DNA of 64,000 bases from Nanobdellota archaeon (GCA_018901755.1 JAHIDZ010000015.1:65079-129078); one strand, 5' to 3'; counted from the first letter of the stretch, positions 3,821-64,000 are shown. Notes: generated by a model from the sequence alone, not told the origin. A program made the numbers and translations.

Positions 3821-4450
3821 ATGAAATGTGAGATAGATGTTAGGAGAGAAGACGATATCGGTTATACACTAGGTGTTATTGCTGGTGATGGGTTTATTGG
3901 AAAGAATACAGAAACGACAAGAATGATTATGCTATCTGTAAAAGATAAAGAATTTTGTGATAATTTTTCAAATAGTTTGTTTAATATATGCGGCCGAAAA
4001 TATAAGGTTAGTAGGGTTAATAATTATAGATATAGACAAGGTTATTGCTGGGTAACAAGATGTTGTATTCGACAAGTAGTTAACTTTTTTGAAAATTATG
4101 ATATTTATCAATTATCAGAAAATACAGATAAGATCAAGCTAGGTTTCTTAAGAGGTATGTTTGATGCAGAAGGTTGTAGCTTTTGTAAGCTTTATCCTAA
4201 AAGAGGAGGTTATTCAAGAACGGTTGCTGTTTTTAATAAAAATAAAAAATTACTTAATCTGTGTCAAGAATTATTGAATTCTTTCGAAATAAAAACAAGA
4301 AAATTTTCTAAAGATAAGGATGGTGTATATGCACTTCACCTGAGTCTTTCAAAAGAAAATCTAACGAAATTTAGGGATTTGATAAATTTTTCAATCCCGC
4401 GCAAAATTTCAAACTTGGAAACATGCTTAGAGAGTTATACGGGTGGTTAA
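3821..4450 (+). CDS. free-standing LAGLIDADG homing endonuclease-like protein
   Basis: Two LAGLIDADG motifs (LGVIAGDGFIG and LRGMFDAEGCS). The ATG abuts the S28e stop and the 3' end overlaps the L24e start. Confidence 0.8.
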   Translation: MKCEIDVRREDDIGYTLGVIAGDGFIGKNTETTRMIMLSVKDKEFCDNFSNSLFNICGRKYKVSRVNNYRYRQGYCWVTRCCIRQVVNFFENYDIYQLSENTDKIKLGFLRGMFDAEGCSFCKLYPKRGGYSRTVAVFNKNKKLLNLCQELLNSFEIKTRKFSKDKDGVYALHLSLSKENLTKFRDLINFSIPRKISNLETCLESYTGG

Positions 4451-4619
4451 TATCAAATGTAGCTTTTGCACTAAAGAATTAGAAAAAGGAACAGGTAAAA
4501 TGTACATAAAAACAGATTCAAAAATATTTTATTTTTGTTCGAGAAGATGCGAGAAAAACATGTTTAAATTAGGACGTGATCCTCTTAGAGTAAAATGGAT
4601 CACTAAAAAGAAAAAATAG
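4443..4619 (+). CDS. rpl24e: 50S ribosomal protein L24e (start assigned to GTG)
   Basis: My own translation from the GTG at 4443 is VVNIKCSFCTKELEKGTGKMYIKTDSKIFYFCSRRCEKNMFKLGRDPLRVKWITKKKK. It shows the L24e zinc-ribbon signature C-x2-C...C-x3-C plus KMYV-like and VKW motifs. The ORF is missing from the track because it is under 60 aa and lacks an ATG start. Confidence 0.72.
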   Translation: MVNIKCSFCTKELEKGTGKMYIKTDSKIFYFCSRRCEKNMFKLGRDPLRVKWITKKKK

Positions 4620-4689
4620 TTTCACTCATCTGGTTGAATTTACTTGGGGTATATATTCTTTTTTTGTTTAGAATATTTAACAGGTTAAA

Positions 4690-5472
4690 ATGTTAAATCA
4701 AATCCTGTTATCTGATCTAAAGATGTTTGGTCTAAGCGAATACGAAGCGCGTGCGTATCTTGTTCTATCTATGTATGGTCCATCGTCAGCATCATTTATT
4801 TCTGAGCATAGTAAGATACCTTCTTCAAAAATATATGATATTTTGAATTCTTTGCGTTTCAAAGGACTATTAGATGCGTGTAATACAAAACCTAAAAGAT
4901 TCAAATTAATTGATCCGAAGTATGCGTTAACTAGTATTCTTGCTTCAAAAGAACTTATGATAGAAGAAATGAGAATTAAAACTAAAAATCTTTTAGAAAA
5001 ATTAAATCCGCCGCAGAATAGCATAAAATCAGAAATATGGCATTCTAGAGGAAAGAGACCGTTTTATGATAAAGCATGTGAGATATTGAATAAAACTAAA
5101 GAGCATGCTATAGCGACAACTAAAGACTTTTCACGTTATCCATTTCTAGATTATGAGTTTCTTGATGCAACTAAGAGAGGTGTTAAGATAAGGATACTTT
5201 GTACTTCGAATCTTACAGATGATGCTATCTCAAGAGCAACGTGGTATGTTAAAAATGGAGCTGATATTAGAGTTCTTCCAATGAAAACAAGCCCGATACT
5301 TGGTATAATAGATGACAGTGAAGTTGTCTTTAAGATTAATTCGCAAGTAGATTGTGATTTCATGTGGTCTAACAATGAGAATCTTATTAGTATAATGAAA
5401 AATTATTTTGAGAATTTGTGGTTAAAAGCGAGTCCTATCCAGCAATGCTTATCGGTTTTGCAAGAGAATTAG
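4690..5472 (+). CDS. TrmB-family transcriptional regulator
   Basis: N-terminal wHTH (LSEYEARAYLVLSMYGPSSASFISEHSKIPSSKIYDILNSL) and a TrmB-like C-terminal domain. Confidence 0.7.
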   Translation: MLNQILLSDLKMFGLSEYEARAYLVLSMYGPSSASFISEHSKIPSSKIYDILNSLRFKGLLDACNTKPKRFKLIDPKYALTSILASKELMIEEMRIKTKNLLEKLNPPQNSIKSEIWHSRGKRPFYDKACEILNKTKEHAIATTKDFSRYPFLDYEFLDATKRGVKIRILCTSNLTDDAISRATWYVKNGADIRVLPMKTSPILGIIDDSEVVFKINSQVDCDFMWSNNENLISIMKNYFENLWLKASPIQQCLSVLQEN

Positions 5473-5728
5473 AAGGTAAAGGATACTTGAATTTGACTTT
5501 CAATGTTCCATTTCTTCCATGGAAGCCTGAAACATGCCCAACATATTTGTTTCCTTTCTTATCTTTGTAAAGTGCTTTCTTACCAATGAATTTACCAGCA
5601 TCTTTTTTAGAGTTTATTCCAGTTATTTCTACTAAAACCTCTTTCGTATAGGCCAAATGATGGTTTATAATTATTCCTTTTGGGTCATTCATAAATATAC
5701 GTCTCCCGACGATTTTTGAGTATAACAT
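5435..5728 (-). CDS. rpl35ae: 50S ribosomal protein L35Ae (eL33)
   Basis: VGHVSGFHGRNGTLKVKFKYPLP resembles the L35Ae C-terminus (RPHGNSGVVRAKF...LP). Confidence 0.75.
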   Translation of the reverse strand: MLYSKIVGRRIFMNDPKGIIINHHLAYTKEVLVEITGINSKKDAGKFIGKKALYKDKKGNKYVGHVSGFHGRNGTLKVKFKYPLPSNSLAKPISIAG

Positions 5729-5759
5729 GTTAGTTCTTTCTGATTTATATTGCTATCGG

Positions 5760-7132: not shown

Positions 7133-8382
7133 TTCTTACCACGTTTTTTCTTTTCGACTTTTCCATTTTCCGGGAGCTTTTCAATTTCCTTTGCAGTTTT
7201 TACAAGTTCTTTTGCTTCTTCCATTTTTTGTTCTGCAGCAAATCGTCCAGGTTCATCGTGTGGTTTTTGTAAGGCTGATCTTAATTCGTGGATAAATCTT
7301 CTAACATATTCTTTATTCATGTAGACATCTTTTTCTGTAATATCATCAATGTTTTTATCTCCAGTTCTTTTCTTCATTGCCATCACTTTATCAAATATGT
7401 CAGCATAGTTAGGACTTATTTTACCAGTTTCAATTAAATGTTTTTTGAATGCTATTGGAAGTTCTTTTGGATCTTTTGGCAATTTATTCATAGTCTTTAA
7501 TGCTGTTATAGAAGCTTTTAGCATGATTTCATAATTTGTATTAATATCATCAATCTTTTTTATATTTTCTAATCTTGTAAGTAATTTGGTCATTGTGTCA
7601 ACATAATCTTGAACTTTCTTAATCCATTCATCGACATCTTTTCCAGAAACTTCTCCAACATGTTCTTTATATTCTATTCTTTTTCTAAATGCATAGATAT
7701 CTTCCATAATTTTTGCATATTTTTCATCTAATAATTTTTCATTAACTAGATGTTTTCTTAATTCATCTGCACATTGGCCAGGTGCTGGTTGTCCAACTCC
7801 AACATACATTAGTATTGCTTGAGCCGCGTCAAGCACTGCATAATAGAGATCTTCAGCAATCATTAATTTTTTAACATCTCTTACTCTGACGATTCGTTTA
7901 GGAACAGATTCCATTCTTAGATAAGCTGATTCTTTCGTTCCAGGAAACTTACCTTGTTCTAACATTTTTCTCATCGGAATAAAAAAACCTGCATCATAAA
8001 CAGCATATCCGTCACGTGTTAAAGTATAGAATACTGGATTGGATTTTCTCATACCATCCCAAAATTCAGTTAGTGCAATAACAGGTTGTGGATGAAGTCG
8101 TGGATCTACTGTTCTAGCTACCTTATACATATCATTTGTAATTTTGTCACGTATTTCTTCAAATTTTTTCAAAGGAAGTTTTGTATCATCAAAAATCATA
8201 TAAATATCAACGTCAGACTTTCCATGTTGTTCACCACGAGTTATAGAACCAAACATGATAATTGCTTTAACATATGCTTTAAACATTCCAAGAAGTTTTT
8301 CTTTATATTCATTTGTTGATTTGTATCTAGTTTCAAAAGAAAATTCTTTCAATTTTTTACCGAGTTTTTTTTGTTTAGTCAT
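7129..8382 (-). CDS. Pol-beta superfamily nucleotidyltransferase domain protein with a helical C-terminal (HEPN-like?) extension
   Basis: FGSITRGEQHGKSDVDIYMIFDD minimal nucleotidyltransferase motif (GS-x9-DxD). Confidence 0.7.
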   Translation of the reverse strand: MTKQKKLGKKLKEFSFETRYKSTNEYKEKLLGMFKAYVKAIIMFGSITRGEQHGKSDVDIYMIFDDTKLPLKKFEEIRDKITNDMYKVARTVDPRLHPQPVIALTEFWDGMRKSNPVFYTLTRDGYAVYDAGFFIPMRKMLEQGKFPGTKESAYLRMESVPKRIVRVRDVKKLMIAEDLYYAVLDAAQAILMYVGVGQPAPGQCADELRKHLVNEKLLDEKYAKIMEDIYAFRKRIEYKEHVGEVSGKDVDEWIKKVQDYVDTMTKLLTRLENIKKIDDINTNYEIMLKASITALKTMNKLPKDPKELPIAFKKHLIETGKISPNYADIFDKVMAMKKRTGDKNIDDITEKDVYMNKEYVRRFIHELRSALQKPHDEPGRFAAEQKMEEAKELVKTAKEIEKLPENGKVEKKKRGKK

Positions 8383-8421: not shown

Positions 8422-9975
8422 TTATCTATATTCTTCTTCTACCCATTCTTTAGCTTTACCTTTTTTATGGGCGCTAGTTCCAAAGAAACCAAAATCTTCT
8501 TCATGTACAGTGAGTAGACCTTTTAATGGGTCGAGCATATGTTGCCGTATTGTTAATTCTTGACGTTTTATTTCAGGACCAAATTCTTTAAGTCCAAAGA
8601 ATTCCAACGGTAGATCTTTTGGAGGAACATTTTTTTCTAGAAACATTGCAATTAATTTTATAGATAAAACACTATCTTGAATTCCTTCTTCACCAGATCT
8701 TTCAAATATAAGCCATGCGTCTTTAAAGCCCTTTTCTCTTAATTCCCAAAGTCTTTCATAGATATACACTTGTGCATCAGATGCTCTTGGGATTCCGAGA
8801 TGTGCTGGGGCATAAGGAACAGGTGCTCCTAAGTGAACTACTTTTACTCGATTTCCTCCTTTCATAGGAAATTTGTTTATCGTCTCTTTTGGATCAATTT
8901 TACTTCCAAGCATATGTTCGAAATCTATAGCAACACCGACCCAATCAGAACCAATGCATTCTGCCAAATAATAAATGTGTAATGGATTTGAAAATCTCAT
9001 ATTTAATTCATGTCCTGGTGATGCCATTGGAGTTTCCATTACAAAATACATTTTACTTTTTTCAAGTTCTTTTTTAAGATTTTGTTCTTTGTATTCGGGT
9101 AATGATGTATTAAAATGTCCCCAGATGTATTTTCCCGCAACTGCAGAAACCCATAATTCTGGTTTTGCAATAAGGTCTGCATCTGATAAATCTTTTCCAA
9201 CAATATTTTTCCATAGGACATCATAACTATTCATCATATACTTTGCAATGATATAATAGGCAAGTCTTTCTGGTCCATATTCACTTTCCTGCGAATTGAA
9301 AAAATCAAATAATTGTCCATCTGCCTCTTCCTTCGAATCCTTCCGCATTTTATCAGCTTCTTCTTTTGGTGGCTGTTTACCTTCATGGGAATAATAATAA
9401 CTTTCAATTTTTTTCTCGAAATAACGATTTTCACCAACTATATATCTTCTCAGCTGTGCAGGCATGTCTTCTCGGTTGATAAATTTCCAGAACCAATCAA
9501 GCAATTTTGGGTTTTCTTCAAATAATTTTCTTAACGGTCTTCCATTAAAATCAACCAAGTCAACTGGTTTAAGATCGTGCCACAATGTAACAAATGGTTC
9601 AGATTCAGAAGAATGTACAAGCATATATTTTGCGCCAAGTTCTCCACTATGTTTTAAATGCAAATAAAGTCTTTCATGAGATAATTTATATTGATCTCGA
9701 TAAGGAGAATCTAAAAACAGAGTAGTTCTTCCGATTGCTTCACATTCGCCATGAATTCCGAATTCAAATCCTTCTTTAATAACTTTTTTCATTGCATCTT
9801 TCAAGCCAGGCTGTCCAAATTCTGTAATTGTTTCTATATCAACTTGTGTAAATTTGGTACCAAATCTAGAAGAATTATAAATCTTTTGATGTATACCTGC
9901 AACAAATTCTGCGCCAGAGCCTTTCTGAGATGCAATTTTAAAATATCCACTGGATATGCCAACAGTATAAGCCAT
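8422..9975 (-). CDS. hypothetical protein (517 aa), possibly a xylose-isomerase-like TIM-barrel fold
   Basis: Long coding ORF with a GISSGYF N-terminus and HLG/FEH motifs. The fold assignment is a weak guess. Confidence 0.55.
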   Translation of the reverse strand: MAYTVGISSGYFKIASQKGSGAEFVAGIHQKIYNSSRFGTKFTQVDIETITEFGQPGLKDAMKKVIKEGFEFGIHGECEAIGRTTLFLDSPYRDQYKLSHERLYLHLKHSGELGAKYMLVHSSESEPFVTLWHDLKPVDLVDFNGRPLRKLFEENPKLLDWFWKFINREDMPAQLRRYIVGENRYFEKKIESYYYSHEGKQPPKEEADKMRKDSKEEADGQLFDFFNSQESEYGPERLAYYIIAKYMMNSYDVLWKNIVGKDLSDADLIAKPELWVSAVAGKYIWGHFNTSLPEYKEQNLKKELEKSKMYFVMETPMASPGHELNMRFSNPLHIYYLAECIGSDWVGVAIDFEHMLGSKIDPKETINKFPMKGGNRVKVVHLGAPVPYAPAHLGIPRASDAQVYIYERLWELREKGFKDAWLIFERSGEEGIQDSVLSIKLIAMFLEKNVPPKDLPLEFFGLKEFGPEIKRQELTIRQHMLDPLKGLLTVHEEDFGFFGTSAHKKGKAKEWVEEEYR

Positions 9976-11667
9976 TTATCCAACACCCATTTTACCTTTT
10001 AAGAATTTGTTAATCATATTAAATTCTCCACCAATAACATTAAGATAATATTTTGTTATTCTATCAGCATAATCTGTTTCATATTGGCCAGGCTTTGAAA
10101 ACATTATACCTTCCATTTTAGGCATTTTCATAGCAGATGATGATCTGCTTATACCACTAAACATAACACGCAACTCTTTCATAAATTTGTCAAGCGCGTT
10201 TTCTTCTTCACCCTTTTTACCAAATAGGAGAGGAAACTCCTTTTTAACAACATCCATTATATCTTCTTGTCCTAGTTTTAATCCTATTATTTCATCAATA
10301 TATCTTTCAAATTCCATTTCTCGACATTTTAATTCAAGCAATTTTACAAGCATTATGTTTTGCGATATTGCATATGCATATACACTAAATGTGATATCTT
10401 CGATTTCACCGATTGTTAATCTTGAGCCTGATCTGAATACATCTATGATGAAAAATGAATAGTATAATTCTGATGGATTTAGTGCAAATCTTTTAGCTTT
10501 CCAATCTGGTAGGATTTGCTCTTCAACAACTTCATCTGCAACTGTTCTTTTTTCTACTGGTCTTTTACATTTCGGACATAGATCTGTTTTTGAAGCATAA
10601 TATTTTTTACAATCACTGCAATAAAATCTTTCATTTGCCAACCACGGATATTCTTTAGCAAGTCCTTTTTTTGGATCTAGTATTAAATTGTCTCTAACAT
10701 AGGAATCGTAAGGATGTATAATAAAATCACCTTCTTTTATAACATCACTTTTTCTTGCTTCAGTAGGTTTCAGGTCTTTCCAGGCCCATATTGTTATATT
10801 GTTTGTATAAGTAGAAATGCCAGCTAAGTCTGAAAATGATTTGAATACATTGGCTCTACCTAGAGCAGATTCAGAACCAAGTTTTGTCATCTTATATCTA
10901 GAAATGTAAGGTTTTAACCAGATTTTATATTCTTCTATTGATTTTTTTCTAGCTGTTTCTAAACCTTTAAGGGTTTCATATCTTCGTTTTACAACGTTTA
11001 GGAATTCTCCTTTCCAGTTTACAAACATTTTATTTTTTGTAACAAGAATAGTTGACTCTGCTTTACTGACATTAAGTTTTTTAGCAACTGGATTAATTTC
11101 TAAATCAGTATCATTCATTGCTTGAAAGTCTGTAATTATTGTAGGCCATCTTTTTGGCATACTAAATAGAGAAAATCCTTCACCAGTGTGCATATCGACT
11201 TGATCAATAAACATTGATCTAAGACTATGTTCATCTTTTTCTGAGAAAAGTTTCATAATTCGTCCATATTTTCTCAAATCGTGTTCAACAAGTTCATAAT
11301 CTGCAACAGCGCTTGCAGCTGAACCAAGACCTTCTTTTATTTGAGCTTCTAATTGTCTTTTGCTAGAAACTGTTTTTTGATAATATTCTGTAAAAGTTGG
11401 AGATATTTCAATCCATTCGTCTATTTTCGAAACATTGAATTTTTCAGTTCCAAGCATGAATACTAGAGAATAATACATAGCAGATGCGATTCCAACTGGA
11501 CCAGTGAAATTAAGTTTTGTAATTTGATTACAGTTTTCTTCTTCATTAACAACTCTGTTATCTGGTCCGTTGCAAAGATAGATACCCATGGTTGGTTTAT
11601 CTGGTACATTAATAGGAATGCCCCATCCCTTTCCATTTGTGAAATCAAAAATAGGTTTATCTATCAT
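9976..11667 (-). CDS. hypothetical protein (563 aa) with an internal zinc ribbon
   Basis: CSDCKKYYASKTDLCPKCKRP zinc ribbon. The start overlaps the stop of the upstream small ORF (ATGA), and the gene abuts the downstream 517-aa gene. Confidence 0.55.
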   Translation of the reverse strand: MIDKPIFDFTNGKGWGIPINVPDKPTMGIYLCNGPDNRVVNEEENCNQITKLNFTGPVGIASAMYYSLVFMLGTEKFNVSKIDEWIEISPTFTEYYQKTVSSKRQLEAQIKEGLGSAASAVADYELVEHDLRKYGRIMKLFSEKDEHSLRSMFIDQVDMHTGEGFSLFSMPKRWPTIITDFQAMNDTDLEINPVAKKLNVSKAESTILVTKNKMFVNWKGEFLNVVKRRYETLKGLETARKKSIEEYKIWLKPYISRYKMTKLGSESALGRANVFKSFSDLAGISTYTNNITIWAWKDLKPTEARKSDVIKEGDFIIHPYDSYVRDNLILDPKKGLAKEYPWLANERFYCSDCKKYYASKTDLCPKCKRPVEKRTVADEVVEEQILPDWKAKRFALNPSELYYSFFIIDVFRSGSRLTIGEIEDITFSVYAYAISQNIMLVKLLELKCREMEFERYIDEIIGLKLGQEDIMDVVKKEFPLLFGKKGEEENALDKFMKELRVMFSGISRSSSAMKMPKMEGIMFSKPGQYETDYADRITKYYLNVIGGEFNMINKFLKGKMGVG

Positions 11668-11896: not shown

Positions 11897-12391
11897 ATGG
11901 TATGGGCAAGAACAAAACTAGTAATACAGGATGATTTAATTAATCCGAGAACAAGAATGGTAATAGATTTTAAGGGAAAAAATCCTCAAAAATTTTATCA
12001 CGAAATACCAAAACTTATAGCAACATCATTTCGAGTTCATTCTGATTCGATTCAAGAGAAGAAATTCCTTATGCATAAAGGAGATCCTGAAAAATTTGAA
12101 GCAGATTGGGAAATAATTAAAGATCTTGATAAATTTTCATATTATAGAATATTGGTTTCTATGAAAGGCGCATCAAGTGGGGGCCATGGTTCGGCTGGTA
12201 TTACAATTGAAGGACTTTTACGAACAGAATATCCGCAAGACACATATTGGCAGAAAAGTCTTTTTTATGAAATAATGAGAATGTTTTGGCATAGCTTTTT
12301 CTATACGTCTAAAAGACAAAAATATTTAGATGACGGAAAAAGTTTGATATCATTTTTCTTAGATGACCTGAAAAATTTAACGAGGATATAA
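11897..12391 (+). CDS. hypothetical protein, paralog 1 of a tandem pair
   Basis: Its C-terminal region (EGLLRTEYPQDTYWQKSLFYEIMRMFWHSFFYTSKRQKYLDDGKSLISFF) aligns with the next ORF. Confidence 0.5.
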   Translation: MVWARTKLVIQDDLINPRTRMVIDFKGKNPQKFYHEIPKLIATSFRVHSDSIQEKKFLMHKGDPEKFEADWEIIKDLDKFSYYRILVSMKGASSGGHGSAGITIEGLLRTEYPQDTYWQKSLFYEIMRMFWHSFFYTSKRQKYLDDGKSLISFFLDDLKNLTRI

Positions 12392-12392
12392 C

Positions 12393-12884
12393 ATGGCAGG
12401 ATCGATGTCAATTAAATCTGACATAATGTCACCATCGGCATCAAAAGTAATTGAATATGTCGGGCCTAATCCAACGATAGTTTATAAAATAATGGCAGAT
12501 CTTCTTCGAGATGTATTTAGACTGGGCGCATCTAAAATATATGAAGATGAAGTTAAATGGGATGTGACTTCTGAACCAACTCAATTTTATGGATACTGGA
12601 GAGCAAAAGATAAGAAAGATAGCCTGACAACGATATGGATTCATGTTGAAGTGAAGGGCAGACAGTATAAAGACAAGACTGGTGAAGTTAAGTTAAAAAT
12701 TAAAGGCACAATAACAACAGCATTTAAGTACAAAAATCCGATAATGAAAGCATTATATTATTTTTATAAAATAACTTTTTACAGAAATCAAAGAGCGGTA
12801 TATATAGATGATGCCAATAAACGTCTTGATAATTTCGAAAATATATTTAGATCACATCTTAATATGATGAGGAAATCGGCATGA
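12393..12884 (+). CDS. hypothetical protein, paralog 2 of a tandem pair
   Basis: KGTITTAFKYKNPIMKALYYFYKITFYRNQRAVYIDDANKRLDNFENIF is similar to the previous ORF. The start is 2 nt after the previous stop. Confidence 0.5.
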   Translation: MAGSMSIKSDIMSPSASKVIEYVGPNPTIVYKIMADLLRDVFRLGASKIYEDEVKWDVTSEPTQFYGYWRAKDKKDSLTTIWIHVEVKGRQYKDKTGEVKLKIKGTITTAFKYKNPIMKALYYFYKITFYRNQRAVYIDDANKRLDNFENIFRSHLNMMRKSA

Positions 12885-13204
12885 AATTACTTGATATTTT
12901 TAATGTGTTTAGAAAGAAACAAGAAATAGTTTCAGAATTACCACAACCAAGTCAATTACCAGATGATTTCGAAAGATTCAGAGTTAAAAGATATCCAGAG
13001 GCGCCTCCTGAACCAGAATATCCATCATCTGACGCGGCAAGATTTAATATGCCAGCACCGGAGATAGAAACACCGCAAATAGAACCTGCAGTTAAGGAAG
13101 AGCCACAAGAATTAATTCAAACAGATAAAATAGATCTTATTCTGCAAAAATTAGAAACAATAGATACTAGATTAAGATTGATAGAAGAACGAACTAGAAA
13201 ATAA
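12881..13204 (+). CDS. hypothetical Pro/Glu-rich protein with a C-terminal coiled coil
   Basis: 4-nt overlap with the upstream gene. Low-complexity PEPE-rich middle region. Confidence 0.4.
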   Translation: MKLLDIFNVFRKKQEIVSELPQPSQLPDDFERFRVKRYPEAPPEPEYPSSDAARFNMPAPEIETPQIEPAVKEEPQELIQTDKIDLILQKLETIDTRLRLIEERTRK

Positions 13205-15532: not shown

Positions 15533-16489
15533 TTATTTTATTGGTATCATTTTTGCAATATTATATGCAAGTGGCCACGGAACGGCATTTCCGATTTGTC
15601 TATATTGTGATGAAATGGATCCTTCAAAGATAAAATCATCGGGAAAATTTTGAAGTCTTGCAACTTCTCTTACAGTCATCCTTCTTTTCAGATTTGGATG
15701 CGGTATTATAACAGGCCCTCCTGTTCCGCCACCTCTACCAACTATTGTTGGAGAAGGCTCATTCCATTTTGTTGCACGGTTTCCTATATGTCCGTTTATC
15801 TTAACTTGATGTTCAGTTCCGTGATGGTTTGGTATATCTCCATCAGTTTTTTCAGGAATTCCTTTTAACCCATCTTTTACTGTTTTCCACAGTGGAAGAT
15901 TATCTTTTCCATCTTTGGAATGCGTCGGATTAGGGTGTATTATTTTTGGTTCAATATCATTTCTTGTTCCAAGTATTATGATTCTTCTTCTTGCCTGTGG
16001 AACACCATAATCCGCAGAATTAAGTATTTTAAAATTAACAGTATAGCCAATTGAAATTGCATTTTCAAGTTCCTTTAAAATAATCTTTAATACCTTTCCA
16101 GTTTTTTTAGCCCGATCTTTAGAAGTTTCATAACCTCCGGCTGAACATAATCCGACAACATTTTCAGCAACGAAATATTTCGGTTCCTTATCCCTAATAA
16201 TACGAAGAAGTTCAAGGTATAATTTATTTCTTTTGTCTTCTGTGTGTCTATATGGATTAGCGATTGAAAATCCCTGACATGGAAATCCACCAATAACTAT
16301 ATCGGCATTAGGAATTTCCAATGATGGAATCTTTTCTATATTGGTGCAAATTGGCCTATGTTTGAAGTATTTTTCATATGTTTTACATGAATCTGAATCA
16401 TTATCATTGGACCAGACTATTATGTGTCCAGCTTTAACAAATCCGAGATCCATCCCACCTGCACCACAAAATAATGATATTATTTTCAT
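15533..16489 (-). CDS. dcm: DNA (cytosine-5)-methyltransferase
   Basis: Motif I FCGAGG, motif IV GFPCQGFS, motif VI ENV (FVAENVVGL) and motif X QIGNAVP. Confidence 0.9.
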   Translation of the reverse strand: MKIISLFCGAGGMDLGFVKAGHIIVWSNDNDSDSCKTYEKYFKHRPICTNIEKIPSLEIPNADIVIGGFPCQGFSIANPYRHTEDKRNKLYLELLRIIRDKEPKYFVAENVVGLCSAGGYETSKDRAKKTGKVLKIILKELENAISIGYTVNFKILNSADYGVPQARRRIIILGTRNDIEPKIIHPNPTHSKDGKDNLPLWKTVKDGLKGIPEKTDGDIPNHHGTEHQVKINGHIGNRATKWNEPSPTIVGRGGGTGGPVIIPHPNLKRRMTVREVARLQNFPDDFIFEGSISSQYRQIGNAVPWPLAYNIAKMIPIK

Positions 16490-18599: not shown

Positions 18600-19790
18600 C
18601 CAAGCCCTTTTCGGTCCGGTAATTTCAGCAGGCTTAGAATGATAATAATTAACCGTTATGGTTTTTATATCTATCTTGCTATATAGTTTGCTATATAGTG
18701 TATTTAAATCCTTTTGGGTGCAATTATACAATATGAAAATGGTGAAACAATCATATGCACAAAACTGGTCAGCATACAACAAAGCTCAGATGAATGAGAA
18801 ACAGCTATTCATGGAACTATTATGCGATTTGTGCAACGATGCTGAAGAACCGGAGTATGTATTCGGAAGACTTAAGATACCAGTTGCTGATATTTTATTC
18901 TGCAGTGCTTTTAAGATATATTCCGGCTATTCTGGTAGAAGATTTACAACAGATATGAGAACTGCAAAGGAAGACAACTACATCAGTAAAGTTCCGCATT
19001 ATAATTCGTTGTTTAATTTTTTGAAGAATCTTAATACATCAGCTATTCTTATGAAAATGATACAGAAATCAGGGCTTTCGTTAAAAGACGTTGAAACAAA
19101 ATTTGCTATTGATGCATCTGGATTTTCAACAACGAGATACAGAAGATGGTTTGATTTCAAATACGGTCATGAAAGGGACTTCAGAATATGGGTGAAAGCA
19201 CATGTAGTTTGCGGAGTAGGAACGAACATAGTTACAGCTGTTAGGCTGTCTGAAGCGAGGGCACACGATAATAAATTTTTCAAGGAGCTTATTAATGATA
19301 CTTCATCAAATTTCAATGTCTGCGAGATGTCAGCTGACAAAGCGTATATGTCAAGAAATAATCTTGAATTGGTTGATAGCCTTGGCGGAAAAGCATACAT
19401 ACCATTCAGATCTAATGTAACAGGAAAACAAAGAGGTTCTAAGCTGTGGGGTAAAATGTATCATTATTTCAAATATAACAATGAGGATTTTATGAAACAC
19501 TACCACCTTAGATCAAACGTCGAATCAACCTTTTCAATGATTAAACGAAAATTTGGTGATACTGTTAGAAGCAAAGATAAAACAGCACAATTTAATGAGA
19601 TTCTATGCAAGATTTTATGTCATAATATTTGTGTTGTTATACATGAAATGCACGAAATGGGTTTCTATAAGAAGACGGAATGGGCAAGTTAGTATTATCA
19701 GGTAAAAATTTATTCAAAAAGAAAAAGAGTTTAAGGACGAAATCCGATTTCTCGTTAAGGACAATTGTCCGATTTCGCCCTATCTATTAT
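18600..19790 (+). mobile_element. IS4/IS5-superfamily insertion sequence (boundaries approximate)
   Basis: Single DDE transposase ORF flanked by GC-rich segments carrying GGTCC/GGAC-GAAA motifs in inverted orientation (near 18603-18626 and 19737-19780). The terminal inverted repeats are imperfect and not firmly delimited. Confidence 0.45.
18733..19692 (+). CDS. DDE transposase, IS4/IS5 family
   Basis: NWSAYNKAQ N-terminal motif, DDE residues in DASGF, SADKAY and ESTFSMIKRKFG (E-x6-K/R). The start is taken at MKMVKQ (18733) rather than at the track's 18658. Confidence 0.8.
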   Translation: MKMVKQSYAQNWSAYNKAQMNEKQLFMELLCDLCNDAEEPEYVFGRLKIPVADILFCSAFKIYSGYSGRRFTTDMRTAKEDNYISKVPHYNSLFNFLKNLNTSAILMKMIQKSGLSLKDVETKFAIDASGFSTTRYRRWFDFKYGHERDFRIWVKAHVVCGVGTNIVTAVRLSEARAHDNKFFKELINDTSSNFNVCEMSADKAYMSRNNLELVDSLGGKAYIPFRSNVTGKQRGSKLWGKMYHYFKYNNEDFMKHYHLRSNVESTFSMIKRKFGDTVRSKDKTAQFNEILCKILCHNICVVIHEMHEMGFYKKTEWAS

Positions 19791-26973: not shown

Positions 26974-26977
26974 TTTT

Positions 26978-49135: not shown

Positions 49136-50263
49136 TTGTGCATGATAAAATCTTTTAAACAGTATGTTCAATTGGCTCCTATTATAGGGAAGATACATTA
49201 TTGGGATTTACCAAAGGAAATAACGATAAACTTAAAAACTAAGGAAAAAATGAAGTTAAAAAATTTATTAAATCTTTATGGAAAAGATAAATATATAGAA
49301 AAGAAAATTGAAGCTATTTCCCACGCAGGAAATAAAATGCATATATCTTTTCCACTGAAATTAAGAAATATTGATTATGTTAAGTTGTACGCATTAATGA
49401 TTTCCGAAGGATACTTTAAAAGAGAATTTAGTATACATGTTCCAGAAGAAGAATTTCATAGTATATTTAAAAATACATTGAAAAATATTTTTAATCAAAA
49501 TGTTATAAATGCACAAAATTTAGTAGTTAGCTGTTTCAAAACAAGAGCTACAAAATTTATTAGATATCTAATTCCTATACCAGAGTATATTCCACGGTTT
49601 ATAGTTAAAAGTAAAGATTATTCTAGAGAATATCTAAAGATAGCATTTGAAGCAGAAGCCTATCCGCATTACTCCACGCCAAGGACTGGTATTAAGAGAT
49701 ATATTAAACTTGCTCGTTCTGTTGATATATCTGACATAGCAAAAGAAGTTAAATATGAAGAAAGTAAAAGAATTTCGTTTGGTAAATTAAAAAGAGAATA
49801 TCCTGCAATTATAAAAAAAATAGATAAAAGACCACCAGTCACTCTTCTAGGAGAATATTATATGTTACAGGAGCATTTTAATATATTCAGTGTTATGAAG
49901 CCTGATTCGTTGAGAGTAAATAAAACTGAATATAAACGTGGTAAAATTAGTATGAGATGGTGTCTCTATATTTATAGCGATTCCCTAGACAAATTTATAC
50001 GCGAAATCAATTTCATAACAAAGCGGAAGAAATTAATAACAGCAAAAATGAAAAAGGTTAAAGGACAAAAAAGAAAATTTTCCACGGTAAAAATAATGAA
50101 ATTGGTTTCAAAGAATAATATTTTTATAACTAAAGATGTTGTAAAGAAAATGAAAGAATTAGGATATAAGAGTCCATATTCCTTTATATGGAAATATAAT
50201 AAAAGAGGAATTATTAAAAAAATCTCAAGGGGGAAATATAAAATTATTTATCAATTAAAATAG
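49136..50263 (+). CDS. LAGLIDADG-like endonuclease domain protein with a C-terminal wHTH-like tail (permuted domain order)
   Basis: Degenerate LAGLIDADG motifs LYALMISEGYF and LKIAFEAEAYP. C-terminal KDVVKKMKELGYKSPYSFIWKYNKRGII. Confidence 0.5.
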   Translation: MCMIKSFKQYVQLAPIIGKIHYWDLPKEITINLKTKEKMKLKNLLNLYGKDKYIEKKIEAISHAGNKMHISFPLKLRNIDYVKLYALMISEGYFKREFSIHVPEEEFHSIFKNTLKNIFNQNVINAQNLVVSCFKTRATKFIRYLIPIPEYIPRFIVKSKDYSREYLKIAFEAEAYPHYSTPRTGIKRYIKLARSVDISDIAKEVKYEESKRISFGKLKREYPAIIKKIDKRPPVTLLGEYYMLQEHFNIFSVMKPDSLRVNKTEYKRGKISMRWCLYIYSDSLDKFIREINFITKRKKLITAKMKKVKGQKRKFSTVKIMKLVSKNNIFITKDVVKKMKELGYKSPYSFIWKYNKRGIIKKISRGKYKIIYQLK

Positions 50264-50930
50264 ATTCTTCAATAATTAGTTCTCCACTTTGTGTGTTTTT
50301 TTGCCATATTTTTTTAGACTTCAGAATTTTTATTCTTTTCTTGAATAATGAGCAATCTAATACCAGTGTTTCATATTCACCGCCTTCTCCTATTACACAT
50401 GTATAACACATGTCATGTAAATTTGTTAGCTCAACAACAGCTGTTTTATCTATCTTTCTACCAAGCCATTCTTTTCCAAGTCCGCCAGCAGCAACAGCAG
50501 TAATTATTATTTCAAACCCAACATCTATCATATTTTTCCATAATTTATTCGGTTCCATACCCCATAATGGAGTTAGTGATTTTAAATCAAGTTCATTGCA
50601 TATTTTTTCAATTCTATCTTTTTGATATTTTGAAGCAATTGCACCAGAAACAACACCTTCTATTTCATATTTTTCTTTAGCTTCTATGATGACATTTTTG
50701 AGATCTTCTAATTCTTCCTCTTTAATACCTTTTGTTTCTTCGAATATAATTGGTATACCCATTAACACTGCCTGTTCTTTTACAAGGTTAATTCCAGGTA
50801 CATGGAACATATATGATTCTGGATTTTCTGATTTCATTGTTACGATTACTGAAATTTCATGTTCTTTTTTGGCTAAGAATAATGAATATATTGAGTCTTT
50901 ACCACCAGACACAAGAGCTGCAAGTTTCAT
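50244..50930 (-). CDS. diphthine-ammonia ligase / PP-loop ATP pyrophosphatase (Dph6/MJ0570-like)
   Basis: SGGKDS PP-loop at the N-terminus. Overall alpha/beta ATPase pattern with EGGEYETLVLD. Confidence 0.72.
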   Translation of the reverse strand: MKLAALVSGGKDSIYSLFLAKKEHEISVIVTMKSENPESYMFHVPGINLVKEQAVLMGIPIIFEETKGIKEEELEDLKNVIIEAKEKYEIEGVVSGAIASKYQKDRIEKICNELDLKSLTPLWGMEPNKLWKNMIDVGFEIIITAVAAGGLGKEWLGRKIDKTAVVELTNLHDMCYTCVIGEGGEYETLVLDCSLFKKRIKILKSKKIWQKNTQSGELIIEESILIDK

Positions 50931-54942: not shown

Positions 54943-55304
54943 AGGGTCAATTTTTTATAATATCAACAGTAATAATGATTTCTGCACTTATTTTGATAAT
55001 GAATTATCTTTATGATTATGGTAAAGTTGATTTAAGCAACGTCGAAAAGATGCAGGAATTAAATTATATCGGTGATGTGAAAAATAGTTTAATGCAAACA
55101 TTGCAAATATCATGTGCTAATTCTCAGAATCCAGAAATGAATCTTGTTCTTTCGGAGAAGAATCTTAAAGAAAGATTATTAGAACGTGGTATAGTTCTTG
55201 AAGTGGCTCATACTAATGTAGGATGCAACCCAGAACCAGTAGGAGATATTACTTTTAAGATTAAATCAAATACTTTTTCTATAGAAAATAGTTTTTCAGT
55301 CTAA
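54939..55304 (+). CDS. small secreted/membrane protein with a possible class III (type IV pilin-like) signal peptide
   Basis: MKG|QFFIISTVIMISALILIM: a short basic leader, Gly, then Gln followed by a hydrophobic helix. Confidence 0.35.
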   Translation: MKGQFFIISTVIMISALILIMNYLYDYGKVDLSNVEKMQELNYIGDVKNSLMQTLQISCANSQNPEMNLVLSEKNLKERLLERGIVLEVAHTNVGCNPEPVGDITFKIKSNTFSIENSFSV

Positions 55305-56384
55305 GCCCGTTATTATTTTAAGATATGGCAGTTGAGTTTTTATGCACCTTTTTGAGCAATGCAACTCTTGCGCTAATTTACCATGTGTTTCATTATTTTC
55401 AGCTCTATCTTCTTTGCTTTTACCGAGTATCATGATTTTTTCTGGAGGCTTATATGGTGTGTATGAATTGTCTTTTCTTATTAGTGTCATAGATACCATC
55501 ATGTTTTTCATATATAATAACATTCTGTAGTTTTTTCCAACATAAACTTTTTCTCTAAACATATCTGCTTTACTAAGTATATCAAATGCGAATGCAATTT
55601 CTTCAGGTTTTTTATATTCGTTTGTAATATTTTGTTCCATCCACCAAAAGATTTCTTCAATATCTTTATCACAAGAATCAATTGCTTTTGAGGCATCATT
55701 GAGACTATTAGATTTGAATATTATTCTAATAGCTTCGAAAATGTTTATACCTCTTTCTCTGAATCCAATTATTTCAGTATGTGTTACTTTTTTTCTATTA
55801 GTTATTATTATTTGTAGATCATTTATTGCAGATCTTAAATCTCCGCCAGAACTTTCTGCTATTCTTACAATTATATCATTGTCTACTTCTACACCTTCTT
55901 TAGCACATATTTCTCTTAGTTTTTTACCAATTGATAATGTTCCAATTCTTCTAAATTGAATTAATGTGCAGTAGCCTCTTAATGTTCTGAGACCTTTATC
56001 ATATGCATCGTTAGCAGTAAGTATTACAGGAAATTTGCTGGTTTTAATAAGATTTATTATTTCAGTAACAGTTCCTTTGTCAGTATAATTATCAATTTCA
56101 TCTACAACTATTATTCTTTTTGCACCAAGCAGAGACATCATTGTTGAAGATGATTTTATTTTTTTTACTTCTTCTATTTCAGATGCGTGAACTTCGGTTA
56201 TATTTATTTTATTATCAATTGATATTACCTGTGATATAATTGTTTTTCCAATACCAGGTGCACCATAAAGAAGAATCGCTTTTCCAGTTTTGAATGTTTT
56301 AATATATTCTACAATATTTGCCAAAGCTGTAGAATTTCCAACAATGTCTGATACTTTTTTTGGTTTATATCTGTTTACTAACAT
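55296..56384 (-). CDS. rfcL: replication factor C large subunit
   Basis: NRYKPKKVSDIVGN, Walker A GAPGIGKT, Walker B VVDEID and SRC-like region. The start overlaps the stop of the upstream LAGLIDADG gene by 7 nt. Confidence 0.8.
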   Translation of the reverse strand: MLVNRYKPKKVSDIVGNSTALANIVEYIKTFKTGKAILLYGAPGIGKTIISQVISIDNKINITEVHASEIEEVKKIKSSSTMMSLLGAKRIIVVDEIDNYTDKGTVTEIINLIKTSKFPVILTANDAYDKGLRTLRGYCTLIQFRRIGTLSIGKKLREICAKEGVEVDNDIIVRIAESSGGDLRSAINDLQIIITNRKKVTHTEIIGFRERGINIFEAIRIIFKSNSLNDASKAIDSCDKDIEEIFWWMEQNITNEYKKPEEIAFAFDILSKADMFREKVYVGKNYRMLLYMKNMMVSMTLIRKDNSYTPYKPPEKIMILGKSKEDRAENNETHGKLAQELHCSKRCIKTQLPYLKIITGLD

Positions 56385-57373
56385 CGTGATACCCCTACTA
56401 TTGCTCTCATATTATTTGCTCTTTTAATACGGTTTGGATGTTGCAATGGCGTATTGTTTAAAAATGTAGGAATAGAATCAACCTTTAAAGAAAAATCGTA
56501 TGTGATACCAAATTCCTTTACCCTTGTAGATATCTTTCCAGATTGCATATTCAAGCGTTCGGTAAATAATTTTAATTCTTCTAGAAACATTCTGTCTGCT
56601 TGGGCGAATATAATTTTTTTATCGGGTTCATATATACAACCATCGGCATCGAAAAACCCTGCGATAAAGGCATTTTTGATTTCTTTTGAACCATTATATA
56701 TAATATCCGGTATTTTTAGTTGTCCTTTCTTTTTACCCATTGGTATACCGCATATTTTATTAAGAAAAATAAACAACACCTTAGACTGTATGTAAATTTC
56801 AAAGCATTTGGAATTTGTTTTATATATATTAGCTTTCAAATCAAATTGATTATTGATAAATTTGTTGAATTTATTAGCAAATTTTACCGTGTCTGAAGCT
56901 ATTTCAATCATGTATTTGAAATTTCCAGTTCTCATTTTTGGTTTCCATATATCTACAAGACAACCATCACCTATGATATAACCGATAATGTATGACAGTT
57001 CTTCTGTAATTTCTTTTGGAAGTTTTACTATTTTACCCTTAGCCACAGAAAAATACTCATTTTCTTTGAATGCAGATTCAATTATTTTGTTTTTTTCATC
57101 TTCTGATTTTCTGCAAACTCCTTTCCAAATATTTATTAGTTGAAAGAATTTCGATATGGGTATTGGTGAAGTTCCGTTAATCCAATTTGAAACTGTTCTC
57201 CTCGGAACGCCAAAAGACATCGTTGTAAGTTTAATAATTCCCTTCCCATGCTCCTTCTTTATTTCAGAATATAAATTTTTAGTTATGTTACTTATATCAC
57301 ACATTCTAATTTCATCATTTCTATCGTAATTAGACAAAACCATAAAATAGTTTGGGATTTTAATAATTATCAC
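56378..57373 (-). CDS. HTH fused to a LAGLIDADG homing endonuclease-like domain; GTG start
   Basis: N-terminal HTH-like region (GVPRRTVSNWINGTSPIPISKFFQLI). LAGLIDADG motifs IIGYIIGDGCLV and FIAGFFDADGCIY. It sits between rfcS and rfcL. Confidence 0.8.
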   Translation of the reverse strand: MIIIKIPNYFMVLSNYDRNDEIRMCDISNITKNLYSEIKKEHGKGIIKLTTMSFGVPRRTVSNWINGTSPIPISKFFQLINIWKGVCRKSEDEKNKIIESAFKENEYFSVAKGKIVKLPKEITEELSYIIGYIIGDGCLVDIWKPKMRTGNFKYMIEIASDTVKFANKFNKFINNQFDLKANIYKTNSKCFEIYIQSKVLFIFLNKICGIPMGKKKGQLKIPDIIYNGSKEIKNAFIAGFFDADGCIYEPDKKIIFAQADRMFLEELKLFTERLNMQSGKISTRVKEFGITYDFSLKVDSIPTFLNNTPLQHPNRIKRANNMRAIVGVSRC

Positions 57374-57377: not shown

Positions 57378-58346
57378 TTATTCCTTTCTGAACAGTGCAA
57401 ATTGTGCAAGCAAACTTTCCAACTGTATTTGTTCATTACCACCTTGGTTGATTCTGAATTCAAATTCTCCAACCTTTTCAATAAGATTTACTTTTTCTTT
57501 TTCTGTTAAATCGATACTGTATATTTGCTGCATTATCTGTTTTATTATATCTTGCCCACAAATTCCATCTTTTAAAATCATATTATTTAAAATTTTTCTT
57601 GCTTCTAAGAAATTTCCTTTTAATGAAATTTCAAGCATATTTTTTACTTCTTTTGGCTCTGCGATTGAAGCTACATCATATATGGCTTTCTCGGTGATAT
57701 TTTTAGTATTAATTGCGGCAGTTTGAAGAATGTTTATTGCTTTTCTAATATCACCTTCAGATAATTTGCATATTGCATCTATTGCATCTGAATCTGCACT
57801 TACCTTTTCCATTCCGATTATCAGATCGAGCCGTTTCTTTATACTTTCATCTGAAATTGTTTTAAATCTAAAAACACAGCATCTAGACTGCAATGGTTCT
57901 ATTATTTTTGAAGAATAATTGCATGATAGGAAGAATCTGCACGAATTACTATAGCTTTCCATTGTTCTTCTTAGTGCATTTTGCGCGTCAGCTGTTAGTG
58001 CATCTGCTTCATCTAGAAATATTATTTTATACGGTATGTTTCCGACAGATTTTGTTCTTGCGAAATCTTTTACTTTTGATCTAATTACGTTAATTCCTCT
58101 TTCATCTGAAGAATTAAGTTCAAGGAAGTTCTGTCTCCAGTTGCTTCCAAATAGCTTTTTTGCTATTATTATTGATATTGTTGATTTACCACACCCGGCA
58201 GGTCCTGCGAACATTAGATGTGGGATTTGTCGAGAATCAACAAAAGCTGAGATTCTTTCAATTATGTTTTCTTGCCCAACAACATCTGAAAATTCAGTTG
58301 GTCTGTACTTTTCGGTCCATATTTGATATTCAGTCATAGTAATCAT
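57378..58346 (-). CDS. rfcS: replication factor C small subunit, no intein
   Basis: WTEKYRP, Walker A GPAGCGKST, DEAD-like FLDEADALT, and SRC motif (SRC in LQSRCCVFRF). Confidence 0.92.
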   Translation of the reverse strand: MITMTEYQIWTEKYRPTEFSDVVGQENIIERISAFVDSRQIPHLMFAGPAGCGKSTISIIIAKKLFGSNWRQNFLELNSSDERGINVIRSKVKDFARTKSVGNIPYKIIFLDEADALTADAQNALRRTMESYSNSCRFFLSCNYSSKIIEPLQSRCCVFRFKTISDESIKKRLDLIIGMEKVSADSDAIDAICKLSEGDIRKAINILQTAAINTKNITEKAIYDVASIAEPKEVKNMLEISLKGNFLEARKILNNMILKDGICGQDIIKQIMQQIYSIDLTEKEKVNLIEKVGEFEFRINQGGNEQIQLESLLAQFALFRKE

Positions 58347-60597: not shown

Positions 60598-60600
60598 ATA

Positions 60601-62408: not shown

Positions 62409-62443
62409 ATCATTATTGGTTTAGATTCTATTCAAGATTCCAT

Positions 62444-62656
62444 TTAAGCTTTAAACGTATCAATCTTACCCGGATTTCTTTGCTTACAAATGCCAGTTTC
62501 CATATCTATAATCATATCATCTCTCCTGACTCTAGTTTTATTTCCAGCACTGTCTGTAAACATCATAAATCTATTTCCAAATTGATCTACTCCGTATCTG
62601 TCTGGACTCGTAAGAGTTTTTTCATCTAAAACAAGCGTAAATTTTTTCTCTTCCAT
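62444..62656 (-). CDS. hypothetical small protein
   Basis: ORF only. More protein-like than the overlapping plus-strand ORF. Confidence 0.35.
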   Translation of the reverse strand: MEEKKFTLVLDEKTLTSPDRYGVDQFGNRFMMFTDSAGNKTRVRRDDMIIDMETGICKQRNPGKIDTFKA

Positions 62657-62697
62657 AAAATTACCTATAAAATTATCATAATTACATATATTTAAGT

Positions 62698-63282
62698 CTA
62701 TTTCAGAATCTTACCAGTTTCCATGTACCATAAATATAAATCTAATTCTGCTAAATTCAGGCTAACTTTCTTTCCCATTTCTCTTAATTTGTTTTCTATT
62801 TCTAAATATGTTTTCGGTGTGAGTGTTTTAGGTTGTTTAATTATTTTATGTTTAACAAGCAAGTCGATTATATGAAAATCAATTATAGCATAGTCTGTGA
62901 ACCCAACGTTACGTAGAAAGTGAGAAGCTTCCTTCATACCTAGTCCTTTAACGTTTTTAACAATCCATTCTCTTGTGCAATTATTTTTAAGACAGGTTTT
63001 ATGTTTTCTAGCTTCCATAATATATTCTGCTCTTTTGTTTGGGTAACGATGCCCATGTTTTTTTAATGTGTTTTTTAATTCCGCTAGAGTTAGTTTTGAG
63101 AAATCTTTAATGTTATTCTGAATTTTTATCGAACGTTCTGCATTAAAATTTGCAGTAAGTATACAGAAACATAATTCATTGAATAAATCTTTATTGTTCT
63201 TGAATTCATTCATTCTAGTTTTAATAAGTTTGCTAACTTCACTTTCTTTTAATTTGTTTATAGAACTGATTAATTCTTTCAT
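62698..63282 (-). CDS. HhH-GPD N-glycosylase/DNA lyase (archaeal Ogg-type 8-oxoguanine glycosylase)
   Basis: VKGLGMKEASHFLRNVGFTDYAIIDFHI matches the helix-hairpin-helix plus Gly/Pro-Asp loop. Confidence 0.72.
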   Translation of the reverse strand: MKELISSINKLKESEVSKLIKTRMNEFKNNKDLFNELCFCILTANFNAERSIKIQNNIKDFSKLTLAELKNTLKKHGHRYPNKRAEYIMEARKHKTCLKNNCTREWIVKNVKGLGMKEASHFLRNVGFTDYAIIDFHIIDLLVKHKIIKQPKTLTPKTYLEIENKLREMGKKVSLNLAELDLYLWYMETGKILK

Positions 63283-63403
63283 ATTATCTATACTTATACA
63301 AAGGTTTTTAAAATGTAGTTATAGTAATAGTTTGTAAGGGCTCGTCGTATACTATTTCAAAGTATACAACGCATTTATATATTTCGATTGACGTAGTTAT
63401 TTC

Positions 63404-64000
63404 ATGAAAATGTGTAAAACCGATAGATTAATTTTCAAATCTGGAAAACAGAAAATTTTTATAGAAGATGTTAAGAACCAGACAGGTTTATCATGGAAGG
63501 AACTATCTAGTAAAATAAATAAAAGTGAAATAGCATTAAGACATGAATTAAGGAATGAAAAATATAACATATCATATTCCGATTTTATGAAATTGTGCGA
63601 TATTTGTAAGTGCCCTAAAAAATTGTATACAAGATATATTCTAAGAATAGAAGATAAAAATTGGGGTCAGAAAAAAGGCGGTCGAATTGGCGGGTTATCA
63701 AAAAAACACAATATGCCAAGAATCATTATAAATAAACCTAAACATTCTGAAAAACTTGCTGAGTTTGTTGGCATAATGCTTGGTGATGGAAGTATTAGCA
63801 AAACGAATTATACTATTGATATAACTCTTAACAGATTTATTGAGAAGCATTATTCAAAATATGTTTCTAATTTGATACGTGAACTTTTTAAGATAAATCC
63901 TCACATTTTTTATCCTAGGAATAAGAATACGATTCAGATTAGAGTAAATTCGTTAGAATTATTTAATTTTTTGAATGAAATTGGATTGGTAACTGGAACG
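63404..64000 (+). CDS. HTH fused to a LAGLIDADG homing endonuclease-like domain, truncated by the window end
   Basis: Its N-terminal region aligns with the other members (KQKIFIEDVKNQTGLSWKELSSKINKSEIALRHEL). First LAGLIDADG motif FVGIMLGDGSI. Confidence 0.72.
   Translation, partial: MKMCKTDRLIFKSGKQKIFIEDVKNQTGLSWKELSSKINKSEIALRHELRNEKYNISYSDFMKLCDICKCPKKLYTRYILRIEDKNWGQKKGGRIGGLSKKHNMPRIIINKPKHSEKLAEFVGIMLGDGSISKTNYTIDITLNRFIEKHYSKYVSNLIRELFKINPHIFYPRNKNTIQIRVNSLELFNFLNEIGLVTGT

Follow-up and report, generated by a model that had tools for sequence, protein, structure and literature searches.

What are seven free-standing endonuclease genes doing among some of the most conserved genes of an archaeal chromosome? 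The question is raised by a stretch of 64,000 nucleotides from a Nanobdellota archaeon (GCA_018901755.1, JAHIDZ010000015.1:65079-129078), referred to here as the window, which contains six free-standing LAGLIDADG endonuclease genes and one gene (F) that combines a helix-turn-helix (HTH) domain with a PD-(D/E)xK-like domain. An earlier note, made from the sequence alone, had suggested a single expanding family, perhaps an actively spreading one. We lean towards a different answer, namely that these are old, site-specific homing endonuclease genes, now long-term residents beside conserved targets. Three of them (D, E, and F) are ancient residents held at the same site in distant archaea, and not a multiplying family.

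Seven free-standing genes in one window

All seven open reading frames (ORFs) were found where the earlier note had placed them, and are labeled as follows (aa, amino acids; nt, nucleotides).

A, 3821-4450, + strand: 209-aa double-LAGLIDADG protein without an HTH; two stretches match Pfam LAGLIDADG_3 (3.5e-14)
F, 27252-27992, + strand: XRE-type HTH (HTH_3/HTH_19), NWGQxKGG linker, PD-(D/E)xK-like domain
B, 42807-43616, or 42807-43738 counted from its ATG, - strand: IHWWE motif, HTH_3, double LAGLIDADG
C, 44481-45224, + strand: double LAGLIDADG with HTH; Pfam HTH_7 (2.5e-5) and LAGLIDADG_3 (3.9e-14)
E, 49136-50263, + strand: small N-terminal domain (IHYWDLP), double LAGLIDADG, C-terminal winged HTH (wHTH)
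D, 56378-57373, - strand: HTH and double LAGLIDADG; Pfam LAGLIDADG_3 twice (4.1e-14), weak HTH_3
G, 63404-64000 (window end), + strand: F-type HTH head, then a first LAGLIDADG domain; Pfam LAGLIDADG_2 (7.5e-6); cut by the window end

That all seven are endonuclease-like was borne out by Pfam LAGLIDADG matches above threshold for A, C, D, and G, by a family profile for B, by an AlphaFold model for E, and, marginally, by a fold match for F. Five of them had been described as carrying an HTH ahead of two LAGLIDADG motifs; this holds for B, C, D, and G (G being cut by the window end after its first LAGLIDADG domain) and fails for A, which has no room for an HTH because its first LAGLIDADG motif already begins at residue 13, the stop-to-stop frame itself beginning at 3821. 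The acidic residue that ends each LAGLIDADG helix, and binds metal in homing endonucleases of this type, is conserved in D (D136/D244), E (E91/E174), and B (D117/E210), and the single sequences of A, C, and G read GDG, DAEG, or DTDG at the motif. None of the seven is covered by a dedicated NCBIfam model, and matches to Pfam LAGLIDADG_WhiA reached 13-21 bits, under the 23.2-bit cut-off.

In sequence, the cores of A, C, D, and G are nearest to the intein-borne endonuclease domains of archaeal RFC, RpoA'', VatA, and IF-2, and the inteins of these proteins and of MCM occupy the same class of target genes. Unlike inteins, the window genes have no Hint or splicing domain (the Pfam Intein_splicing domain matched none of the seven), show no in-frame insertion, and possess their own start and stop, each being a separate ORF between stops, with E on the strand opposite to the neighboring gene dph6. 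The claim that none lies in an intron or in-frame intein was upheld. The reported ends overlapping neighboring genes were likewise seen (E/dph6, 20 nt; D/RFC-large, 7 nt; C/tRNA-Trp, 12 nt; and A/L24e, 8 nt, if L24e begins at GTG 4443), whereas the reported non-ATG starts are mostly longest-ORF artefacts: the TTG of B results from a 1-nt shift, and E and D have an ATG slightly inside the frame.

The high density of nuclease genes in the window, which the earlier note had called unusual, is real. Hidden Markov models (HMMs) of these families gave seven matches in the 64 kb, exactly the seven ORFs, compared to one match in approximately 1.1 Mb from 80 other archaeal loci, a control that is biased towards these particular families. 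A scan of genome contigs with RFC-small turned up archaea from all phyla, at 50-57% identity and without any close relatives; it provided empty sites and a density control only. The families that could be traced (D, E, and F) are sparse, with 18-35 clusters each among 5.8 billion proteins, and their orthologs in other archaea are 35-70% identical in each case.

Sites held across distant archaea

The genes have a site of their own in each case, at the edge of a highly conserved information-processing gene (A between S28e and L24e, D between RFC-small and RFC-large, E at the 3' end of dph6, F before tRNA-Lys, B after a tRNA, and C against tRNA-Trp). A selfish, insertional origin is visible at E, where two further features are involved:

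50244-50930, - strand: complete dph6-like diphthamide synthase gene (PF01902; Pfam 8e-68), antisense to E
48991-49098, - strand: dph6 relic, a duplicate of approximately the last 36 codons, in a 52-codon ORF (48985-49143) just upstream of E

E probably starts at ATG 49142, two codons into the frame (called product, 373 aa). It had no Pfam match, and both single-sequence and profile searches of PDB sequences failed for its nuclease domain; an AlphaFold model built with 25 homologs (predicted local distance difference test [pLDDT] score 92, predicted template modeling score 0.84) matched TliVMA, PI-PfuI, PI-SceI, WhiA, I-Tsp061I, and I-DmoI in a Foldseek search of the PDB, with E-values of 8e-8 to 1e-4. 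E91-G92 and E174 are invariant in the family, and the C-terminal wHTH is AbiEi_4-like in 11 of the 25 homologs; LAGLIDADG comes before the wHTH, as the earlier note had it.

The relatives of E (25, at 38-53% identity) include proteins from Aenigmarchaeota and from an Asgard Atabeyarchaeia genome, and dph6 is convergent with E in all 27 testable loci (that is, unique loci with sequence downstream). The 3' ends overlap by 4-50 nt (20 nt in the window), the exception being locus L116, in which E is split by a frame break. Six independent loci have, on the dph6 strand upstream of E, a relic of the last 26-53 Dph6 residues (z 9-21 against shuffles), and in every case the homology starts at the conserved EGGE motif. 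The relic in the window is 58% identical to the Dph6 C-terminus over 36 aa (blastx, E-value 4e-8; z = 16.7 against shuffles) and approximately 70% identical to dph6 DNA over 101 nt. Decay of the relics is uneven, with internal stops in the window and in L100, and approximately 14 E loci show no relic upstream. Several copies of E are degenerate, with frame breaks in L116 and L122 and the first domain missing in L118/L121, and in one genome (L011) dph6 is present without E and is followed by a YjbQ-like gene. The selfish origin of E is read from these observations together: the duplicated dph6 C-terminus, the degenerate copies, and the genome L011, which has neither E nor D. E is the only one of the seven to show a 3'-end insertion with a duplicated C-terminal coding segment, and dph6 is its conserved partner and presumed target. 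A literature search found no paper connecting LAGLIDADG genes with diphthamide synthase.

The most probable mechanism is homing by free-standing endonuclease genes. The LAGLIDADG core and its fused HTH or wHTH would recognize and cut a long site in a nuclease-free allele of the neighboring gene, and repair from the occupied allele as template would copy the nuclease gene in. At dph6, insertion of E would have displaced the last 45 or so codons, from the EGGE motif onwards; a second copy, joined to the gene, would have taken the place of the lost end, and the original would have decayed. Once established, the genes would be inherited mainly vertically with their flanks, with occasional loss or degradation and with the catalytic residues kept. 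We infer the cleavage activity, the actual target sequences, and the present-day mobility of these genes; what is observed are their folds and conserved residues, the constancy of the sites, the dph6 relic, the degenerate copies, and one genome with empty sites. An identity matrix of the 36-43-aa segments was too noisy to tell whether the relic or the attached C-terminus travels with E.

Gene D is packed between the genes of the two RFC subunits:

57378-58346, - strand: RFC small, Pfam-confirmed, separated from D by a 4-nt gap
55296-56384, - strand: RFC large, Pfam-confirmed, overlapping D by 7 nt

The called product of D has 321 aa, with its ATG a few codons inside the longest ORF, and its 18 relatives are 26-52% identical to it. 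All five orthologs of at least 42% identity (window, L007, L008/9, L010, and L125) lie between RFC-small and RFC-large, and D136 is invariant in the family and D244 nearly so. In L011, which is named as Aenigmatarchaeota, RFC-small and RFC-large are 12 nt apart and D is absent; its RFC-large is 45% identical to that of the window, compared to 39-40% for the D-bearing genomes. RFC-small and RFC-large are also directly adjacent in Thermococcus, Pacearchaeota, and Woesearchaeota loci. A D paralog at 26% identity adjoins Nop56/fibrillarin genes, and its contig (L124) also encodes a small GIY-YIG protein (7372-7701) and a 233-aa HTH_3/HTH_19 protein (10077-10778) that may be F-like.

The possibility that D is a decayed RFC intein was considered and rejected, as D is a separate ORF with no Hint domain. 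In L007, a second free-standing LAGLIDADG_3 gene (286 aa; 9078-9938, - strand) lies beside an MCM gene with a LAGLIDADG intein (10059 to the end, - strand), and in L010 an RFC-small gene with an intein is directly next to the D ortholog; free-standing and intein-borne copies thus coexist at the same genes. A small DUF6364 ORF (48-68 aa) separates RFC-small from the D ortholog in L007 (4858-5004) and L008 (4791-4997), for which the window has no room because its gap between RFC-small and D is only 4 nt.

Gene F is tied to a tRNA gene:

26957-27160: L37e gene, 5' neighbor of F
28064-28164, + strand: tRNA-Lys(CUU) gene (Rfam tRNA, 43.2 bits over model positions 10-63), whose intron follows directly on the 5' acceptor strand

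In all three genomes compared (window, L003, and L005), F lies near S8e, LSM, and L37e, with tRNA-Lys(CUU) immediately after it; 35 full-length relatives are 33-70% identical. The earlier description of F as an HTH joined to a DUF559-like PD-(D/E)xK core was right about the HTH and is marginally supported for the fold, while DUF559 was not found at E ≤ 1 and the nuclease domain had no Pfam or PDB sequence match. The C-terminal domain was modeled with a pLDDT of 88, and its best Foldseek matches were PspGI, Mus81, AF1548, NucS, and Can2, with probabilities of approximately 0.8-0.99 but E-values of just 2e-3 to 4e-2. The invariant residues of the family are E137, P166-D167, E176, and K193; E137, PD167, and E176 would fit, marginally, a PD-(D/E)xK fold with its E...PD...(D/E)xK motif and alpha-beta-beta-beta-alpha-beta core, the motif in F reading E-R-C with the lysine displaced to K193.

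Both acceptor halves of the tRNA-Lys are readable in the window sequence. The idea that the tRNA piece after F is an att-like remnant was rejected, since it is a complete tRNA-Lys with a non-canonical intron. The intron sits in a different place in each of the three genomes: behind the 5' acceptor strand in the window, on the 3' side of the anticodon in L003 (6751-6844), and within the 5' anticodon stem in L005 (6757-6844). ARAGORN misses the gene in all three. Between tRNA-Lys and the RNA polymerase genes, the window encodes a 955-aa NosD/beta-helix protein (28220-31087, + strand), in place of which L005 has several small ORFs.

Relationships, origin, and rival explanations

Judged by profile comparison, the seven genes do not form one young family but two old LAGLIDADG clades plus F. 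Pairwise identity among them is 22-29% or undetectable. An HMM of the D family matches A (4.5e-16), C (2.2e-14), and G (4.5e-9), which puts A, C, D, and G in one clade; G also matches the D profile by hhalign (E-value 2.3e-7). B and E represent a second clade by their alignment, the two family profiles being colinear over the IH[WY]W motif, the two LAGLIDADG domains, and the wHTH at the C-terminus (hhalign E-value 5e-11), the last of which has been lost in the B of the window and in its nearest homolog; the E profile is only distantly related to that of D (1.4e-4). The shared N-terminal head that the earlier note had proposed for several members stands for F and G, which align over 95 residues (G residues 4-100), including the NWGQxKGG linker (hhalign E-value 3.1e-9); the alignment supports a common DNA-binding head on apparently different nuclease cores. 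D and F have the HTH alone in common (3e-5), and the HTH of C is of the resolvase type (HTH_7), unlike the rest.

The picture of one recently expanding, currently active selfish family spreading in this genome can draw on the seven genes per 64 kb, compared to one in approximately 1.1 Mb of other archaeal loci, and on the head common to F and G. We nevertheless hold it to be extremely improbable: the copies are far too divergent, D, E, and F have closer orthologs at the same site in other genomes, and neither repeated flanks nor recent duplicates were found besides the E relic. The orthologous loci carry the same gene at the same place (D in 5/5, E in 27/27, and F in 3/3), the very observation that the earlier note had named as speaking against active spread.

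A much more serious rival, above all for D and F, is domestication, which the earlier note had given as its alternative. At least D and F, and perhaps E, may have been recruited long ago as sequence-specific DNA-binding regulators or host nucleases that act on or with their neighbors (the RFC operon, tRNA-Lys, and dph6). WhiA and HO are known examples of LAGLIDADG proteins with such a fate, and like the window genes, WhiA (DUF199, of Gram-positive bacteria) joins a two-domain LAGLIDADG core to an HTH and is stable, vertically inherited, and fixed in position; the fold search with E matched WhiA structures too, and the extra HTH and wHTH domains recall it. D is tightly packed in the RFC operon, is intact in 17 homologs, and diverges with RFC-small and RFC-large; F is intact in 35 homologs and always adjoins tRNA-Lys; and E co-diverges with dph6. 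Unlike in WhiA, however, B, C, D, and G carry their HTH at the N-terminus, and the acids are conserved in B, D, and E, while domesticated proteins of the WhiA type lose their catalytic acidic residues (PMC3384342). Degenerate E copies, the dph6 relic, the broken start of B, the absence of D and E from L011, and the Pfam WhiA scores below threshold likewise speak against domestication, which on balance we regard as unlikely, though well worth weighing.

A bolder form of host function would make an undescribed set of catalytically intact LAGLIDADG-HTH genes permanent parts of core operons (RFC-small/D/RFC-large, S28e/A/L24e, and dph6 with its antisense E) in DPANN and some other archaea, where they would regulate genes of replication and translation or act as nucleases for the host. 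We consider this improbable. If true, archaea would have their own equivalent of HO or WhiA, with the active site kept, and the dph6-E pair, which is conserved between DPANN and Asgard archaea, would be no parasite but a functional module. We think it very unlikely that the genes are nucleases for conflict with mobile elements or viruses, acting in exclusion or defense as proposed for Haloferax islands and phage seg/mob. The idea has been raised for archaeal free-standing LAGLIDADG genes (PMC5867893), and A, C, and D give weak PADLOC 'HEase' matches; these reflect the generic LAGLIDADG core only, though, and the genes lie inside core operons rather than defense islands and show no connection with the methylase and transposase genes of the window.

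Several results also weigh against the old, resident homing endonucleases that we favor. Pairwise identities of D track those of RFC-small and RFC-large, with a rate falling between the two, and identities of E and Dph6 are correlated (r = 0.51, Mantel p ~5e-4), albeit with a few discordant pairs; in the hosts that diverge most, E is the better conserved of the two. This co-divergence indicates mainly vertical inheritance. All D copies are intact (17 homologs) and none looks degenerate, and purifying selection as strong as that on the essential neighbors also fits a host function. The frame breaks in E come from single metagenome contigs and may be assembly errors. A search for relic duplications flanking A, B, C, D, F, and G found none, the only repeats around B and C being the two tRNA 3' ends. 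As for possible vectors, the E, B, and F families have no relatives in viral contigs (IMG/VR), in which the D family finds only generic LAGLIDADG cores without the HTH head. Orthologs were traced for D, E, and F and none for A, C, and G, and presence/absence polymorphism was not seen in a sample that had no close relatives. A simple housekeeping role is a poor fit to the rarity of the families, the empty sites, the E scar, the degenerate copies, the catalytic acids, and the intein-like cores.

Phages and organelles offer well-documented cases of free-standing homing endonuclease genes, and fungal mitochondria have endonuclease ORFs that replace a gene's 3' end. In Allomyces, the mitochondrial ORF360 is reportedly a free-standing endonuclease ORF in the 3' end of atp6 that carries a replacement C-terminus; it resembles E in its position at a 3' end and in the duplication of a C-terminal segment, one copy attached and one a relic. 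Unlike it, E is antisense and overlaps the host stop codon, its host is an archaeal dph6, and it is found at 27 loci in several archaeal phyla. The seg/mob genes of phage T4, cyanophage F-CphI, and a gene of Haloferax (PMC5867893) are likewise stand-alone ORFs between conserved genes, with no intron or intein and with empty sites and adjacent flanks in related genomes. Unlike the phage genes, which are mostly GIY-YIG or HNH, the window genes are chromosomal (DPANN and Asgard), belong to LAGLIDADG, are fused to an HTH or wHTH, and hold their site across genomes with just 40-56% identity between the flanking proteins. F can be compared to the PD-(D/E)xK homing endonuclease I-Ssp6803I and to HTH-nuclease fusions: its HTH, for reading the sequence, precedes a putative restriction-like core, and its site keeps to a tRNA gene. 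Unlike I-Ssp6803I, it is free-standing upstream of the tRNA and not intronic; it has no sequence match to I-Ssp6803I or DUF559, and its fold match is marginal.

In archaeal chromosomes, free-standing homing endonuclease genes have barely been described. One free-standing LAGLIDADG_2 gene was noted in Haloferax (PMC5867893), and a literature search for DPANN together with LAGLIDADG found only papers on rRNA and tRNA introns of the candidate phyla radiation. The E/dph6 and RFC-small/D/RFC-large arrangements are the most distinctive here. In the window and its relatives, several lineages have kept intact active sites while sitting, for a very long time, at the borders of the best conserved genes in small archaeal genomes; this bears on how long homing endonucleases can persist without an intron or intein, on the relation of RFC and MCM inteins to their free-standing neighbors, and on host recruitment. 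With its antisense overlap, decaying duplicate, degenerate copies, and 27 loci, E/dph6 offers a natural series for invasion, fixation, and decay, and the D, E, and B families are an untapped source of long-site nucleases with add-on HTH modules.

The other nuclease genes and their surroundings

The neighbors of A, B, C, and G are as follows:

3611-3820: S28e gene, Pfam-confirmed, 5' neighbor of A
4443-4619: L24e gene, Pfam-confirmed, 3' neighbor of A
43741-43860, including the encoded CCA, - strand: class II tRNA gene, with the ATG of B 3 nt downstream
45213-45303, - strand: tRNA-Trp gene, convergent with C, overlapping it by 12 nt
62698-63282: Ogg glycosylase gene, divergent from G

The L7Ae-S28e-L24e cluster is generally contiguous in archaea, and A is placed inside it, its ATG following directly on the S28e stop codon. 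A had no match among phage records. A metagenome scan returned no relatives of C, which is 28% identical to a nuclease-like coding sequence within annotated DNA polymerase genes of Staphylococcus phages.

B is recognized in Pfam by HTH_3 alone, and a single-sequence PDB search gave HTH or noise matches only; the profile of its homologs matches the PI-PfuI endonuclease (8.8e-7), LAGLIDADG_3 is found in 5 of the 15 homologs, and D117-G (FDG) and D209-E210-G (IDEG) are invariant in the family. The homologs begin with IHWWE close to the N-terminus, and in the window IHWWE is encoded in frame upstream of the TTG. A single T in a TTT run (43729-43731) puts the sole ATG (43738-43736) out of frame (ATG GTG ATT TAA; 43727-43741), and the start region is identical in two other assemblies. 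B would be a pseudogene of recent date or a protein truncated at its N-terminus, unless the shift is a repeated assembly or homopolymer error.

The window has 31% G+C and is crowded with core archaeal genes: S2, L7Ae, S28e, L24e, S8e, L37e, GluRS, AspRS, TFB, TBP, and MCM, together with RFC small and large, RpoA'' (Rpb1_5), CCA-adding enzyme, and tRNase Z. The large ORFs upstream of RpoA'' look like an RpoB/RpoA' operon. Two regions, 8422-11667 (- strand) and 11897-13204 (+ strand), contain two large ORFs (517 and 563 aa) without a significant Pfam match and three smaller ones, both of the two that were scanned being likewise without a Pfam match. Of the window's four tRNA genes, three adjoin a candidate nuclease gene (B, C, or F), for which the probability by chance was estimated at approximately 0.03, and both minus-strand tRNAs, next to B and C, have introns and an encoded CCA end. 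A C-5 cytosine DNA methyltransferase gene (15533-16489, - strand) lies a few kb from a DDE_Tnp_1 transposase gene of the IS4/IS5 type (18658-19692, + strand); these are other mobile or restriction-related genes of the window, separate from the LAGLIDADG set.

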